Shown: positions 1 to 4,919, numbered from the stretch's first letter. The stretch: DNA of 4,919 nt from a virus (IMGVR_UViG_2913123054_000007:1-4919), one strand, 5' to 3'. Notes: generated by a model from the sequence alone, not told the origin. Program-made: numbers and translations.

Positions 1-342
1 ATGATGAAAAAAAGTATATTGGCGTTTTTGTTGCTCACCAGTTCCACTGCGGCGCTGGCGGCTCCTCAGGTAATTACCGTCAGCCGTTTTGAAATTGGCA
101 AAGACAAATGGGCGTTTAATCGCGAAGAAGTGATGTTGACATGCCGACCAGGTAATGCGCTGTATGTCATTAACCCCAGCACCCTGGTGCAATACCCTTT
201 GAACGATGTTGCGCAAAAAGAGGTTTCCAGTGGGAAGACTAAGGCCCAGCCTATTTCAGTGATCCAGATTGAAGATCCCAACAAACCCGGTGAAAAAATG
301 AGCCTGATGCCATTTATAGAACGAGCTGAAAAACTTTGCTGA
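1..342 (+). CDS. yebY: Small secreted/periplasmic protein with N-terminal signal peptide, YebY-like (DUF2511-type, from memory)
   Basis: ATG at 1, stop TGA 340-342, 113 aa. The N-terminus [22 protein letters not shown] is a classic Sec signal peptide with an AxA cleavage motif. The sequence matches my recollection of E. coli YebY; this was not verified by search. Confidence 0.8.
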
Positions 343-370
343 TTACCTGAATTAGGCTTTTGATTTGCCA

Positions 371-414
371 AAAAAAACGCCCAGGATCTTTTATCAGATC
401 GGGCGTTTTTTTTA
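371..414. terminator. Bidirectional rho-independent terminator (yebY on +, antisense sRNA on -)
   Basis: A8 run 371-378, GC-rich stem 379-383/402-406 (CGCCC/GGGCG) extended by GATC/GATC 386-389/398-401, 8-nt loop, then T8 run 407-414. The A-run upstream and T-run downstream let it terminate on both strands. Confidence 0.8.
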
Positions 415-479
415 CTTTTAAAACGATGATTAAGACGCTTTTTTCTGACCACTTTTCGTGTGGACTGGAAAACCTGGCG

Positions 480-498
480 TCGTCATCTATTCTTAAAG
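480..498 (+). promoter_or_regulatory. Candidate sigma-S-type promoter for sdsR
   Basis: CTATTCTTAA at 486-495 resembles the extended sigma-S -10 consensus (C at -13 followed by TAYACT-like hexamer). No clear -35, which is common for RpoS promoters. Predicted start about 499-501. Confidence 0.5.
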
Positions 499-603
499 GG
501 CTAGGCAACTAAGCCTGCATTAATGCCAACTTTTAGCGCACGGCTCTCTCCCAAGAGCCATTTCCCTGGACCGAATACAGGAATCGTATTCGGTCTTTTT
601 TTA
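499..603 (+). ncRNA. sdsR: SdsR (RyeB) RpoS-dependent small RNA
   Basis: About 104 nt downstream of yebY with three stem-loops: GCATTAATGC region (~515-527), GGCTCT/AGAGCC (543-560), and a perfect 10-bp terminator hairpin GACCGAATAC/GTATTCGGTC (569-595) followed by T7 (596-602). The sequence and the position next to yebY match what I recall of sdsR. Ends are approximate (+/-3 nt). Confidence 0.65.
580..602. other. Candidate attL core (last ~23 bp of sdsR)
   Basis: Published work that I recall (Salmonella/E. coli ryeA/ryeB locus as an insertion hot spot) places the phage attachment core in the last ~23 bp of ryeB. That corresponds to GGAATCGTATTCGGTCTTTTTTT here, and int ends 130 bp away at 734. 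The exact core limits cannot be fixed without attR or an empty site. Confidence 0.4.
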
Positions 604-614
604 ATTGTATTTAA

Positions 615-627
615 AATCAATTGGTTG
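615..627 (+). promoter_or_regulatory. Possible IHF binding site in the att arm
   Basis: AATCAATTGGTTG matches the IHF consensus WATCAANNNNTTR, in an AT-rich segment between the candidate core and int. Confidence 0.3.
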
Positions 628-636
628 CAAACGTCT

Positions 637-668
637 CCCCGAAATTCCCCGAAATTTACTCGAATTTC
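637..668. repeat. Tandem 10-bp direct repeats CCCCGAAATT x2 plus a degenerate third copy (candidate arm-type Int sites)
   Basis: CCCCGAAATT at 637-646 and 647-656, then ACTCGAATTTC at 658-668. They lie between the candidate core and the int stop, where arm-type sites are expected. Confidence 0.3.
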
Positions 669-733
669 TGTATTCCGGTCTTTTTTGGTTATATCACAAC
701 CAAAATACATTTAACAATCCATTTACGTTAAAA

Positions 734-1810
734 TCAGAGCAGTAAGTACGTTTTTTCTCTCTCATCAAGATACATTTTTGTTGTCTTCTCCGATGTGTGG
801 CCAAGTAGACGCTGAGCAAATTCTTCTCCACATGTCTCTTTGTACAATCGTCCAGCCAGACTTCTGATCTCGTGAAAAGTTGGTGGGTTTTCACTGAACT
901 GGATACCTGTTAATTTTCTGGCTGCGACAAATTTTTTTGTCAGGCCATCCGGGTGAATGCTGCCGTCAGGGCTGTTTTTTCTAATCCCGGCACTGATTAG
1001 ATAATCCCCCCTACTTACCAGGCGGCACCGTTCAACTATTGTACCAAGCCGTAATCCAGCGACCGGAAGGTTGAGTGACAGGGGGATAGCAATCATCATT
1101 CCCGTCTTAATTTGCCTGATGTGGAGACGATCATCATAAATATCACTGAACCGCATATTCGTTATGTCTTCGCGACGTTGTCCTGTTACAAGGGCTAAGT
1201 CCATAGCTAATGGGAACCATGCCGGAAGTTGGTCTGCTGCCTCCCTGATGCAGTTGTATGTCTTTAGTTTCAGTCGTTCTCTTGTAACTACTATTTTCGG
1301 TGCTCTTGTTGGCGTTACTGGATTTTGAGATATACGTCCTTCAACAATGGCCTCGCGGAACATATCAGATAACACAGAACGCATTGATCCTGCCATCGTG
1401 TTTTTCCCTCCTTCAATCCACGAATCAAGAAACTCGGCAATATGGCGAGTGGTTATTTCTGTCAGTAAAATCCCTCCCAGTTTTTCTTTTATTGTCTCCA
1501 GTTGATTTACCCGAATTTTATAAGTATTTCTGGACACTTTTCTCCTTATAAGAATCGTTTTGTAACGTTCGATCCAGTTTGACATAGTAAATGAATCGCC
1601 CCCTTTAAGTTTTTCAATTAAGGCTACAGGAGAGTAGGTTTTGTATATATAATGATTGGCTTCAATTGCCTGTGCTACCGCATCTCTTTTTGAAATTTTA
1701 CCTAGCGTAAATTCTTCTTTTGTCAGAGGATTGCGCCAGTAGTATGCTTTGTCCCTTCTTCGATATGTTAGGTTTCTAGGCAAATTGGGATCGTATTTTT
1801 TCCGCTGCAT
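734..1810 (-). CDS. int: Lambda-family tyrosine integrase
   Basis: 358 aa, ATG at 1810, stop TGA 734-736. It aligns along its length with lambda Int from memory (PNL..YYxRxPxTxKEF N-terminal arm-binding region; [11 protein letters not shown] vs lambda HELRSLSARLY; LLGH box; catalytic Tyr in KMYLDER near the C-terminus). Confidence 0.95.
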
Positions 1811-2057
1811 TTTTTAATTTCTCCAGTAACGGACTGTCTCTCCCTTGCCGACCAGTAGGCTGATGGTTTGTTATATCGGTATCAAACTTATTTGGGTTGA
1901 TATAGAATGCCTCCGGATCCACCCTGTAACTCCTCCCGTGCAGTTCAGGTGCGGGATAAATATTTCCATTCCTGGCCCACCGTCTCAGCGTTGATATTGA
2001 TGGTGGGTTATCCGGATATCTGAGTTTCCCCCACGTTTTGAGTGTCACAAGATTCAT
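1776..2057 (-). CDS. xis: Excisionase
   Basis: TLRRWARNGNIYPAPELHGRSYRV resembles the lambda Xis winged-helix region (TVRRWVRECRIFPPPVKDGREYLF). It overlaps the int start by 35 nt, as in lambda. I chose ATG at 2057 (MNLVTLK...) because AAGAGGT lies 7 nt upstream; the track's ATG at 2063 sits only 1 nt from that Shine-Dalgarno. Confidence 0.8.
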   Translation of the reverse strand: MNLVTLKTWGKLRYPDNPPSISTLRRWARNGNIYPAPELHGRSYRVDPEAFYINPNKFDTDITNHQPTGRQGRDSPLLEKLKNAAEKIRSQFA

Positions 2058-2079
2058 TGCCATACCTCTTACGATATGA

Positions 2080-2108
2080 CCGCCAGTAAATATACAGAAT
2101 ACTGGCGG
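2080..2108 (-). promoter_or_regulatory. 9-bp inverted repeat hairpin in the only sizeable intergenic gap of the operon
   Basis: CCGCCAGTA (2080-2088) and TACTGGCGG (2100-2108) flank an 11-nt loop, between the small-ORF stop (2164) and the xis start. No T-run follows on the - strand, so it is not a canonical terminator. Confidence 0.3.
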
Positions 2109-2163
2109 GCGTGGTTGATTTTTAATAATCAGCTATGAAGTTTTAATTTGAATACAATGCAAT

Positions 2164-2352
2164 TCACGAGGACTGAAGTTGCTCGCAATTAAAATTTATC
2201 AGTTTTACTTTCTGCTCTCTGGAAACGCCTGCTTCTTTTTTACCTGAGAGCATTTTTTCGCATTCTGATTTGGTTAACTTTGTTTTTGAGTACCTTGTCC
2301 AGTTGGTAGGAGAACCACCTTCCTTTTCAATAGTGGTGGTAATTTTATACAT
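2164..2352 (-). CDS. Small basic hypothetical protein (62 aa), possibly YdaC-like by synteny
   Basis: ATG at 2352 is preceded by GGAGGTG at the right spacing; stop TGA 2164-2166. The track's 86-aa version starts inside lar and lacks an RBS. Its position between xis and lar mirrors Rac (intR-xisR-ydaC-lar). I cannot confirm sequence homology from memory. Confidence 0.55.
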   Translation of the reverse strand: MYKITTTIEKEGGSPTNWTRYSKTKLTKSECEKMLSGKKEAGVSREQKVKLINFNCEQLQSS

Positions 2353-2575
2353 GAACACCTCCATTATTATTTCCAGTGGTTCGTTTATTCCATCTTTCGA
2401 GTGCTTCTTTTTCACTTCCACCATAACCGGTTCGGGATTTGCATCCGTTACACTTCGCTCGGTAATATCCTGAAATGGCTTTCACCGTTACTGATGGACA
2501 ACCACAAAATGGACATGGTTTGACTTTTGTGTATCGAACTGGTTTTTCTCCTGTGAGCTTTGTGGCTGCGCTCAT
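2345..2575 (-). CDS. lar: Lar-family restriction alleviation protein (zinc ribbon)
   Basis: 76 aa. CPFCG...CNGC forms a C-x2-C-x17-C-x2-C motif followed by EALERWNKR, typical of the Lar family as I recall it. The start ATG (2575-2573) overlaps the exo stop TGA (2574-2572) as ATGA. Confidence 0.75.
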
Positions 2576-3252
2576 TTCCATTGCTCCCCAAATACAAAAC
2601 CAATTTCAGCCAGTGCCTCGTCCATTTTTTCGATGAACTCCGGCACCATCTCGTCAAAACTCGCTATGTACTTTTCATCCCGCTCAACCACGACATAATG
2701 CAGGCCTTCACGCTTCATACGAGGGTCATAGTTGGCAAAGTACCAGGCATCTTTTCGCGTCACCCACATGCTGTACTGCACCTGGGCCATGTAAGCCGAC
2801 TTTATGGCCTCGAAACCACCGAGCCGGAACTTCATAAAATCCCGGGAGGTGAACGGGCATTTCAGCTCAAGGCCGTTGCCGTCACTGCATAAACCATCCG
2901 GAGAGCAGGCGGTACGCATACTTTCGTCGCGATAGATGATCGGGGATTCAGTAACATCCACGCCGGAAGTAAACTCAAACAGGGCTCTGGCGTCGTTCTC
3001 GTACTGTTTTCCCCAGGCCAGCGCCTTAGCGTTAACTTCAGGAGCCACACCGGTGCAAACCTCGGCAAGCAAGGTGTGGAAGTAGGACATTTTCATGTCT
3101 GGCCACTTTTTTCCTGAGCGGGGTTTTGCTATCACGTTGTGAACGTCTGAAGCTGTGATGACACCTAGCCGTAATTTGTGCCACGCATCATCTCCCTGTT
3201 CGACAGTTCTCACGTCGATCCCGGTACGCTGCAGGATAATGTCTGGTGTCAT
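2572..3252 (-). CDS. exo: Lambda exonuclease (Red alpha)
   Basis: 226 aa, [15 protein letters not shown]...GFVFGEQWK. It is essentially identical to lambda Exo from memory, with a few substitutions. The exo ATG overlaps the bet stop as ATGA. Confidence 0.97.
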
Positions 3253-4034
3253 GCTGCCACCTTCTGCCCTGCGGCTTTCTGTTTCAGGAATCCAAGAGCT
3301 TTTACCGCCTCGGCTTGTGTCAGTTCTGACGATGCGCGAATGTCGCGGCGAAGTATCTGGGAACAGAGCGGCAATAAGTCGTCATCCCATGTTTTATCCA
3401 GGGCGATCAGCAGAGTGTTAATCTCCTGCATGGTTTCCTCGTTAACCGGAGTGATGTCGCGTTCCGGTTGATGTTCTGCAGTGCATGCGGTATTTTCGAC
3501 AATGCGCTCGGCTTCATCCTTGTCATAAATACCAGCAAATCCGAAGGCCAGACGGGCACACTGAATCATGGCTTTATGCCGTAACATCCGTTTGGGATGC
3601 GACTGCCACGGTCCGGTGATTTCTTTGCCTTCTCGGGTTTTGAATGGTTCGCGACGGCACTCATCCATCCACTCGGTAACGCAGATCGGATGATTACGGT
3701 CCTTGCGGTAAATCCGGCATGTACATGATTCATTGTCCTGCTCAAAGTCCATGCCATCAAACTGCTGGTTTTCATTTATGATGCGGGACCAGCCATCAAC
3801 GCCCACCACCGGAACAATGCCGTTCTGCTTATCAGGGAAGGCGTAAATCTCTTTCGTCCACGGATTAAGTCCGTACTGGTTGGCGACGATCAGCAGCGCA
3901 ATGAATTGCGCATCGCTGGCATTACCTTTAAATGCCGTCTGGCGAAGAGTGGCGATCAGTTCCTGCGGGTCGACAGAATCCATGCCGACGCGTTCAGCCA
4001 GCTTCCCGGCCAGTGTTGCAAGTGCTGTACTCAT
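3249..4034 (-). CDS. bet: Red beta single-strand annealing protein
   Basis: 261 aa, [26 protein letters not shown]...; near-identical to lambda Bet from memory. AGAGG sits 10 nt upstream of the ATG at 4034. Confidence 0.97.
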
Positions 4035-4039
4035 TCGTT

Positions 4040-4339
4040 TTATACCTCTGAATCAATATCAACCTGGTGACGAGCAATGGTTTCAACCATGTACCGGATG
4101 TGCTCCGCCACGCGTTCCTGAAATTCAACATCGTTATCAAATGCGCGACTGATTGCCTGTTTGCTGGCACCGTGGCGTTGCAAATGGTCGATGCAGAGCG
4201 ATTCAAACAGGTGCTGGGGCAGACCTTTTTCCAGGTCGTCCGCCAGTTCCGTTTCTTTTTCTTCGCGAACGATCTTCTGGTAGTGGCGTGACCATGCCAG
4301 CTCTTCAATGCGATCAAAAATCGGGCATGTGCTCATCAT
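4040..4339 (-). CDS. gam: Gam, RecBCD inhibitor (short GamS-like form)
   Basis: 99 aa. ...[20 protein letters not shown]...[20 protein letters not shown] matches the lambda Gam C-terminal ~95 residues from memory. The start (ATG 4339 or 4336) lies inside the 3' end of the upstream ORF. Confidence 0.9.
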
Positions 4340-4919
4340 CCGTTACCCCAAAATTTTCAAGTTTGTTTGCGATCATCATTGCAATATCCGGAATTAATGG
4401 CGCTGAGGCTATACCTGCAGGATTCGCACATAAACCGTAAACCGCCGCAATCACCACTTGTCTTTTCCAGTCGAGTTTTTCTAATGATGAAGCTGCTGCT
4501 TCGCCAGTTTCATCACTGCAATCGCGATGCGGATCGCTGCCAGCATTCTCATTGTGCGTATGTTCTGTGCCTTCCATTTCCACCGGATCATTTTCCTTAG
4601 CTTCAACCTGATTCTCTTCATCGAATGTTTCCTGGTATGTTGCGTCGCCCATCACCGCACCACAGTCAGGGCAGTTATCCCCGCCAGTCTGACCGCAGGC
4701 ATTGCAGACTATTTCCGGTTCCTGTTGCACTACTGGCTCAGGTTGTTTCACATCCGGGCTGGTTTTTTCCGTTTCTGGCGTGTTTTGTTCCGTTTCTGGC
4801 TGGTTCTGGTACACAGAATCGCGAGTCTGGATCCCCTTAACCCATTTCGGATCGTTCGGGTCGCTAATTCCGTCAACAAATTCACCACGTGATGCAGCAA
4901 GCAATTTATCGGCATCGAC
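4314..4919 (-). CDS. Acidic, low-complexity protein with CxxC-x7-CxxC zinc knuckle; function unknown (5'-partial)
   Basis: The frame is open to the window edge: the track's 'M' at 4904 is a TTG and the reading frame continues (..[14 protein letters not shown]..). Stop TGA 4314-4316. About 40 D/E versus about 12 K/R by hand count. It has a PETExxT 7-aa repeat, [16 protein letters not shown] (~4660-4708) and a more hydrophobic C-terminal ~50 aa. I recognise no family. Confidence 0.6.

Follow-up and report, generated by a model that had tools for sequence, protein, structure and literature searches.

SdsR (RyeB) is a core RpoS-dependent regulator that is reported to act on mRNAs for porins, efflux and mismatch repair, among others, and RyeA is, to our knowledge, the only dedicated antagonist of SdsR that is known. 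The closest described case of a prophage at this pair of genes is phiW104 in Salmonella Typhimurium DT104; according to the passage of PMC7380047 that cites Balbontin 2008, its att site falls within the final ~23 bp of ryeB, internal to ryeA, and its integration restores ryeB and substitutes the 5' portion of ryeA, with ryeA transcription decreased and ryeB transcription increased upon lysogeny. The ryeB gene of Salmonella has also been cited as a previously known phage integration target (Bobay 2013, PMC3603311). The phenomenon was thus already described in Salmonella in 2008, the site is a known hot spot and the mechanism is not new; what is added here is a new host clade, the prevalence in E. 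coli, the mapping of the crossover, most likely to a terminator loop, the anatomy of the phage arm and a caveat on the Rfam RyeA model. For the host side of the comparison, K-12 ryeA is transcribed from a sigma-70 promoter with its transcription start site (TSS) at sdsR +142 and a -10 element, TATGGT, taken from a mutagenesis primer (Choi 2019, PMC6610125); the RyeA 3' ends fall at +261 to +270, and mutation of the promoter (PryeA) results in more SdsR and in more sdsR read-through into pphA (PMC6610125). For SdsR itself, a promoter role of C(-13) and the synteny rule that the gene lies downstream of yebY have been described (PMC3333887).

The window analyzed here (the whole stretch of 4,919 nt) is the final 4,919 nt of contig VATU01000013.1 (assembly GCA_005781255.1) of Escherichia cryptic clade II strain E4385, the host of the prophage, and the contig end falls inside the prophage, at window position 4919. 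E4385 is named among 16 draft genomes of Escherichia cryptic clade II from Hong Kong intertidal sediment (PMC6639607, PMC7716201), and a YebY protein identical to that of the window is present in unclassified Escherichia genomes. Our analysis strongly favors a model whereby a lambdoid prophage was integrated by a lambda-type Int into the terminator hairpin of sdsR, with the result that sdsR was rebuilt and ryeA was split. The features on which the argument draws are as follows, in window coordinates.

1-342, plus strand: yebY, host core gene upstream of sdsR (113-aa ORF, family YebY PF10709).
370-413, both strands: bidirectional hairpin terminator, serving yebY on the plus strand and native RyeA on the minus strand (from fold and position).
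462-606, minus strand: RyeA-homologous antisense segment lacking the native promoter and RyeA +1 to +38 (RF00101).
487-493, plus strand: sigma-S-type -10 element of sdsR, with C487 at -13 and TATTCT at 488-493 (read from the sequence).
500-602, plus strand: sdsR (ryeB) small RNA gene, intact (RF00111; +1 placed from the position of the -10 element).
568-596, plus strand: SdsR terminator hairpin, with GAATAC/GTATTC inverted repeats around the loop AGGAATC (terminator scan and fold).
577-603, no strand: att core common to attB and attP (window compared with empty sites, phage attP and an occupied site in E. coli).
579-585, no strand: proposed 7-bp overlap region, coinciding with the terminator loop AGGAATC and lying between perfect inverted repeats.
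597, plus strand: phage-type T, in place of a host C, in the U-tail of SdsR (comparison of empty sites, attR and attP).
604-631, minus strand: sigma-70-like TTTGCA-16-TACAAT, the only candidate phage antisense promoter (promoter scan, 9/12 matches).
604-733, no strand: right arm of attL, equivalent to the P' arm of phage attP (95-98% identity to attP arms, unrelated to host).
615-627, plus strand: IHF-binding consensus AATCAATTGGTTG (WATCAANNNNTTR), at the position of lambda H' (perfect consensus match).
638-667, plus strand: three tandem candidate arm-type Int sites, CCCGAAATT at 638 and 648 and CTCGAATTT at 659 (repeats).
669-686, plus strand: second core-like half-site TGTATTCCGGTCT, then a T-run (recurs at this relative position in four arm types that are divergent).
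734-1810, minus strand: int, lambda-type tyrosine integrase of 358 aa (Pfam Arm-DNA-bind_1, Phage_int_M and Phage_integrase).
1776-2063, minus strand: xis, excisionase (Pfam Exc PF07825, 54.1 bits).
2164-2352, minus strand: DUF1187 gene (Pfam match).
2168-2346, plus strand: RalA small RNA (Rfam RF02694, 205.8 bits).
2345-2581, minus strand: ralR/lar (Pfam match).
2572-3252, minus strand: exo (Pfam match).
3249-4034, minus strand: bet (Pfam match).
4040-4339, minus strand: gam (Pfam match).

On the host side of the junction, the SdsR model RF00111 matched positions 503-602 of the plus strand over its whole length (model positions 1-100 of 100), scoring 118.1 bits where the gathering threshold is 38. 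The -10 element at 488-493, together with C487, would place +1 at G500, and the sequence of this element is the same in K-12, PK8241 and conspecific strains; as in the described synteny, sdsR lies downstream of yebY on the same strand. The predicted fold of SdsR consists of three hairpins (-34.8 kcal/mol, z = -4.5) and is identical to the native fold; the stem of its Rho-independent terminator, at 568-596, has 11 bp and leads into a T-run, and 131 bp separate the terminator tail from the int stop codon. These SdsR and nearby int features of the window are far above chance, and the preliminary description, which had recognized SdsR by a sigma-S-like -10 element, three hairpins and a strong terminator, with int ~130 bp beyond, was right in every particular. 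Farther upstream, two Rfam matches to the Thr leader at 296-426 (27.7 and 21.7, against a gathering score of 55) were rejected; they reflect merely the yebY terminator.

Comparison with uninterrupted loci located the junction to the base. In each of the 5,426 complete E. coli genomes, similarity to the window (~85% identity) stops at position 603, and 228 of them continue past the break into the same int type. Similarly, eight same-species empty sites, defined as contigs carrying the exact YebY protein of the window, have yebY, sdsR and then pphA directly; their identity to the window is ~98-99% as far as 603, and from 604 the sequences are unrelated. The locus is split in ~236 of the 5,426 complete E. 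coli genomes (~4%), 228 of these having the int type of the window, and uninterrupted in ~96%; this figure counts the genomes in which the K-12 query aligned in two places (5,662 - 5,426 = 236), the query being off-centre from the core and coverage counts being uninformative. Two exact-pattern scans for the attL junction in species-representative genomes returned no match, and the exact junction 60-mer of the window is absent from the viral contigs; E4385 has no entry in IMG/VR.

The other partner of the recombination, attP with its core and right arm, was found in the phage record PP818812.1 and in the viral contig L027, where it is laid out as tail-fibre genes, then ...TTGTTGACGAAA-ACAGGAATCGTATTCGGTCT-TTTTTTA-ATTGTATTT..., and then int; the right arm in these two is 95-98% identical to window positions 604-733. 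The core shared by attB and attP comprises a 20-bp block of unbroken identity at 577-596, a mismatch at 597 (C in the host, T in the phage) and TTTTTA at 598-603. Base 597 is C in six of six gaplessly aligned same-species empty sites and in the same-species attR, whereas pPE4 and L027 have T here in attP; C also occurs at this base in 5 of 56 attL copies, and T597 is therefore a marker of one phage lineage and not a universal one. Since the window combines the host T576 with the phage T597, strand exchange took place inside 577-596. A second marker narrows this interval in E. coli: base 588 is A in all 56 attL copies from viral contigs (mostly E. coli), whereas it is G in E. coli attB and in all of the ~36 attR copies on E. 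coli viral contigs, which indicates that the exchange in E. coli always falls within 577-587. The arrangement GAATAC-AGGAATC-GTATTC conforms to the pattern of a 6-8 bp overlap flanked by inverted core-type sites, and the most likely place of strand exchange, to judge from this arrangement, is the 7-nt terminator loop between the inverted GAATAC and GTATTC core sites. The phage half of the core supplies the final bases of the rebuilt sdsR, and the tail alone is altered, from UCUCUUUUU to UCUUUUUUU.

The opposite end of such prophages is represented by several related lysogens. In E. coli PK8241, attR lies ~42 kb from attL and consists of the phage P arm, a core with the host G and C, and a K-12-type flank that includes the ryeA -10 element and pphA; ~36 further E. 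coli viral contigs carry attR, and at least nine contigs bear both attL and attR. In the species of the window, the right flank of attR (L015) has 99% identity with the conspecific empty site; this attR and the conspecific attL (L111) are on one contig of 42.5 kb. The attL side of that contig is 94.9% identical to window positions 1-2528 and divergent thereafter, the L111 element being a mosaic relative of the window's prophage and distinct from it. By analogy, the attR of E4385 would be expected to join the phage P arm (...TTGACGAAA), by way of ACAGGAATCGTATTCGGTCTC, to the native 5' end of ryeA and to pphA. The preliminary description had proposed a prophage at the 3' end of sdsR, and the empty sites, attP and conspecific attR agree in supporting it. 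The loss of collinearity that it had placed at ~603 proved exact, at 603/604, in E. coli (K-12 included) and in the conspecific empty sites, and the DNA to the right, which it took to be phage-derived, matches the attP arm and is unlike the host sequence there. The core that it had put at ~23 bp was found to be ~20-27 bp, and the matching attR core that it expected at the other prophage end is present in the conspecific lysogen and in E. coli lysogens, which are relatives of E4385.

The fate of ryeA is different from that of sdsR. The RyeA/SraC model RF00101 gave a full-length match at 606-462 of the minus strand, with 174.8 bits against a gathering score of 37; intact K-12 ryeA scores 175.1 bits. 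Because RF00101 covers the part of RyeA that overlaps sdsR and does not include the native 5' end, the model is blind to the difference between an intact and a disrupted ryeA. The hairpin at 370-413 was taken as the native RyeA terminator because the RyeA 3'-end positions fit it. The complement of the K-12 ryeA -10 element lies at 2149-2154 of L001, and this position sets the TSS at 2142 of L001, 38 nt beyond the last base that L001 has in common with the window. Conspecific empty sites and the conspecific attR contain the native ryeA promoter sequence; the host ryeA promoter (-10 TATGGT), RyeA +1 to +38 and pphA are missing from the window, which is phage DNA from 604 onward. In conspecific and E. 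coli lysogens, the ryeA promoter, the first 38 nt and pphA sit at attR, ~40 kb away.

The phage DNA that took the place of the RyeA 5' end, positions 604-733, reads as a lambda-like P' arm of attP with an IHF site and three putative arm-type Int sites, and not as a dedicated promoter. Among 26 unique variants of this arm, the substitutions in the IHF site are all at N or R positions of the consensus, and the consensus was also seen in divergent arm types, partly as judged by eye. The 9-mer CCCGAAATT has two copies in the window, 10 bp apart, with a third, degenerate copy at 659, and the P arm of attP contains a single copy of it, at ~-144. At least three other arm types have the same core, and the Int proteins of two of them are 59% and 68% identical to that of the window, which makes at least four arm/Int lineages (59-100% Int identity) that use the sdsR core site. 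Their common order is the IHF site, three repeats of the YCGAAAWT type that co-vary with Int, and the second core-like half-site.

The main alternative to this reading is that the arm carries a working phage promoter, from which a shortened RyeA of ~225 nt would start near 597 and still cover all of SdsR. The 9/12 sigma-70-like element at 631 to 604 adjoins the core on the RyeA strand, so that some antisense RNA is possible; the TTTGCA-16-TACAAT element is also present in the attP of pPE4, and the reported phiW104 effect, a lower transcription of ryeA, is compatible with residual expression. However, promoter-like matches are no more frequent than chance would give (1.9 kb has two, whereas shuffles yield 4.3 +/- 2.0), and across the 26 unique arms the hexamers are not spared, with 5 of 12 hexamer positions variable compared with 3 of 16 in the spacer. 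In 10 of the 56 loci with the same Int type, the essential A at -11 has been replaced (ATTGCA, ATAGCA or ATTTCA), and the element overlaps the perfect IHF consensus, whose pattern of variation accounts for the conservation that is seen. We consider this alternative unlikely, and the promoter-like sequence, as far as its composition and variation tell, is probably fortuitous. The claim of the preliminary description that the RyeA promoter and 5' end are now phage-encoded can thus be upheld in one half, in that phage DNA has replaced the 5' end; the phage-supplied promoter does not stand, the match being not above chance and not conserved. A second minus-strand candidate picked manually, TTGTTA-18-TATAAC at ~718 to 689, was rejected, since position 6 of its -10 element is not T and the candidate was absent from the output of the scan.

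The genes adjacent to 604-733 are those of a lambdoid prophage. The three domains of Int all score above their cut-offs (PF09003, 28.1 bits with a cut-off of 22; PF22022, 41.2; PF00589, 62.1), and the protein is 38-41% identical to the Int proteins of lambda and HK022. The early-left genes from DUF1187 to gam together span 2164-4339 on the minus strand. It could be supposed that the int-proximal DNA is a decayed remnant or an island, in which case the locus would be permanently rewired and there would be no antisense linked to induction. The window stops at the contig end, 4.9 kb into the element, where a truncation or rearrangement is possible, and some viral contigs bracketed by attL and attR span just 15-20 kb. 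Against this, int, xis, exo, bet and gam are full-length ORFs, each with a strong Pfam match, related elements that use the same att sites measure 40-50 kb and have full structural modules, and a contig break within a lambdoid prophage is the usual outcome of repeats in short-read assembly. A remnant is, on balance, quite improbable.

The integrated lambdoid prophage, which we continue to prefer, shares much with the described systems. As in phiW104, at least as that phage is summarized in PMC7380047, the site is the 3' end of ryeB, ryeB is regenerated and the 5' portion of ryeA is replaced; in contrast to phiW104, the host is Escherichia cryptic clade II instead of Salmonella, the prophage has the lambda Red genes and RalR/RalA, the crossover is mapped by markers to the stretch that contains the terminator loop, and the replacement DNA is resolved into IHF and putative arm-type sites. 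The likeness to lambda extends from Int, with arm-binding, central and catalytic domains (38% identity), and xis, which lies upstream of int and overlaps it, to the predicted attachment site, in which an IHF site beside the core and then three tandem arm-type repeats would make up the P' arm, a further repeat lies in the P arm and a 7-bp spacer appears to separate the inverted core sites. Unlike the gal-bio intergenic attB of lambda, however, the target here is the terminator hairpin of a small RNA, the core identity is ~20-27 bp compared with 15 bp, the P' arm has an extra core-like half-site, and no sib/tI-like terminator was predicted across the attP region of pPE4. In addition, as at the 3' ends of tRNA and tmRNA genes and at sites of the ryeE/CP4-44 type (Williams 2002; Bobay 2013, PMC3603311), a symmetric stem-loop at the 3' end of a conserved small-RNA gene is targeted and the phage copy of the 3' end restores the target gene; the difference is that sdsR overlaps the antisense gene ryeA, which is left unrestored, so that of the two RNAs one is disrupted by integration while the other is unaffected.

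What integration would do to the pair can be outlined from published work in other strains. PryeA, RyeA +1 to +38 and pphA would be carried to attR, where PryeA would now be directed into the phage P arm. With the prophage in place, little or no native RyeA would be made, and none from the sdsR side; sdsR would be freed of interference by convergent transcription from PryeA, so that SdsR should rise, and pphA would be uncoupled from PsdsR and from sdsR read-through. Lower RyeA and higher SdsR are expected because of what is seen in the phiW104 lysogens of Salmonella and in the K-12 promoter mutants. The ryeA -10 mutant of K-12 (Choi 2019, PMC6610125) resembles the lysogen in that convergent ryeA transcription is removed from sdsR; it differs in that the prophage moves pphA ~40 kb from sdsR and would leave PryeA active at attR, facing phage DNA.

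With regard to antisense RNA in the lysogen, the likeliest source at sdsR, judged from the sequence, is read-through from int, probably at the establishment of lysogeny or upon induction if the analogy to lambda holds. Neither the terminator scan nor folding yielded a terminator-like fold on the minus strand from 745 to 600 (z = -0.87), and a strong terminator is the hairpin at 413 to 370, whose minus-strand RNA folds with -23.5 kcal/mol (z = -4.9) and is followed by U8. With no terminator between int and this hairpin, int transcription would extend into a RyeA-like RNA antisense to all of the abundant SdsR, to which the 3' end of the int transcript would be perfectly complementary. A CII-type pI motif, TTGC-N6-TTGC, was not found in xis, and the window has seven matches with one mismatch where 6.45 are expected. 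It is tempting to go further and to propose that SdsR and int are coupled, in either direction, which would tie the control of prophage excision to a host stress small RNA, and we regard such coupling as improbable. If it were true, SdsR could be a host-supplied, trans-acting counterpart of lambda sib on the 3' extension of int: int mRNA paired with SdsR would be cut by RNase III and degraded in the 3'-to-5' direction, and excision would be damped in stationary phase. In the reverse direction, int read-through driven by induction could deplete SdsR and de-repress mutS, tolC and ompD.

The weakest explanation, that there was no insertion, the int-adjacent layout being ancestral and the yebY-sdsR-pphA arrangement the product of a deletion, has nothing in its favor except bare adjacency and is refuted by the segregation of markers among attP, attL and attR, a free attP with both phage arms, reciprocal host and phage markers in attL and attR, and the uninterrupted site of eight conspecific genomes and of E. 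coli (~96% of genomes) leaving it practically no room.

Given insertion of a prophage into the sdsR terminator, each such event is a natural knock-out of the ryeA promoter and a separation of pphA from sdsR. An Int family of 59-100% identity appears to target the loop of the sdsR terminator across Escherichia, and lysogeny at the sdsR site may be a recurrent source of strain differences in SdsR and RyeA, a point of relevance to the comparison of small RNAs across strains. Two practical warnings for annotation also follow from the locus. The Rfam RyeA model will report disrupted copies of ryeA as readily as intact ones, and the ORF that the gene caller predicted across the junction is spurious.

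In the E. coli lysogens, represented by strain PK8241 (L002 and L012), the half of the core contributed by the phage alters the SdsR terminator at window positions 588 and 597; G588A converts a terminator G-U pair into A-U, and C597T lengthens the terminator U-run. In the clade II host, C597T is the sole change arising from the phage core half. C597 is retained in 5 of 56 attL copies, and attP is therefore polymorphic at this position.

A further element that resembles the core lies within the P' arm on the phage side of the junction:

669-686, plus strand: second copy of the core 3' half, located ~66 bp inside the P' arm and reading TGTATTCCGGTCT, then a T-run

This half-site is kept at the equivalent relative position across four divergent arm types. 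It could be an additional core-type Int site or, as the other option, a weak back-up terminator blocking sdsR read-through into int.

The consensus start of the Rfam RyeA model RF00101, AauUAAAAAaAG, is closer to the phage-type junction AATTAAAAAAAG than to the K-12 native sequence AGATAAAAAGAG (empty locus L001, 2107-1963), so occupied or Salmonella-type loci may predominate in the seed alignment of the model. The public assembly annotates a gene (L054, 4210-4419) for a 69-aa minus-strand ORF at window 501-710. This ORF spans the phage/host junction and continues across sdsR in the antisense direction, and its annotation is almost certainly spurious.

The sole close phage relative is PP818812.1, 'Actinobacillus phage vB_Apl-pPE4', whose Int is 96% identical. 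The assignment to an Actinobacillus host looks doubtful, since the attP of this record is specific for the sdsR terminator seen here in Escherichia; the record may derive from an E. coli prophage or a contaminant. In the viral contigs L028 and L046, the attR copies carry a host flank of a third type, TCTATAAAGCCAGTTTGATAATGGC..., indicating that members of the same phage family are also inserted at this site in one or more additional lineages of Escherichia. Two other viral contigs, L031 and L035, carry the P arm and core followed by a different P'-like arm instead of host DNA, with a predicted IHF site AATCAACGGGTTA, CCTCGAAAT repeats and an Int fragment of 72% identity; this arrangement suggests tandem or hybrid elements at one site.

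Further into the prophage, two adjoining features were identified:

2168-2346, plus strand: complete RalA antitoxin sRNA (RF02694, 205.8 bits)
2345-2581, minus strand: ralR/lar-family ORF (PF14354)

Together they make up a type I toxin-antitoxin/restriction-alleviation module of the rac type. The prophage bearing it has the lambda Red genes exo, bet and gam, whereas E. coli PK8241 has recET in their place. A 196-aa ORF on the minus strand (4314-4904) is without a Pfam match. Shortly beyond gam, the window ends at 4919 at an assembly break within the prophage, which fixes its length and was likely caused by repeats common to other lambdoid prophages.
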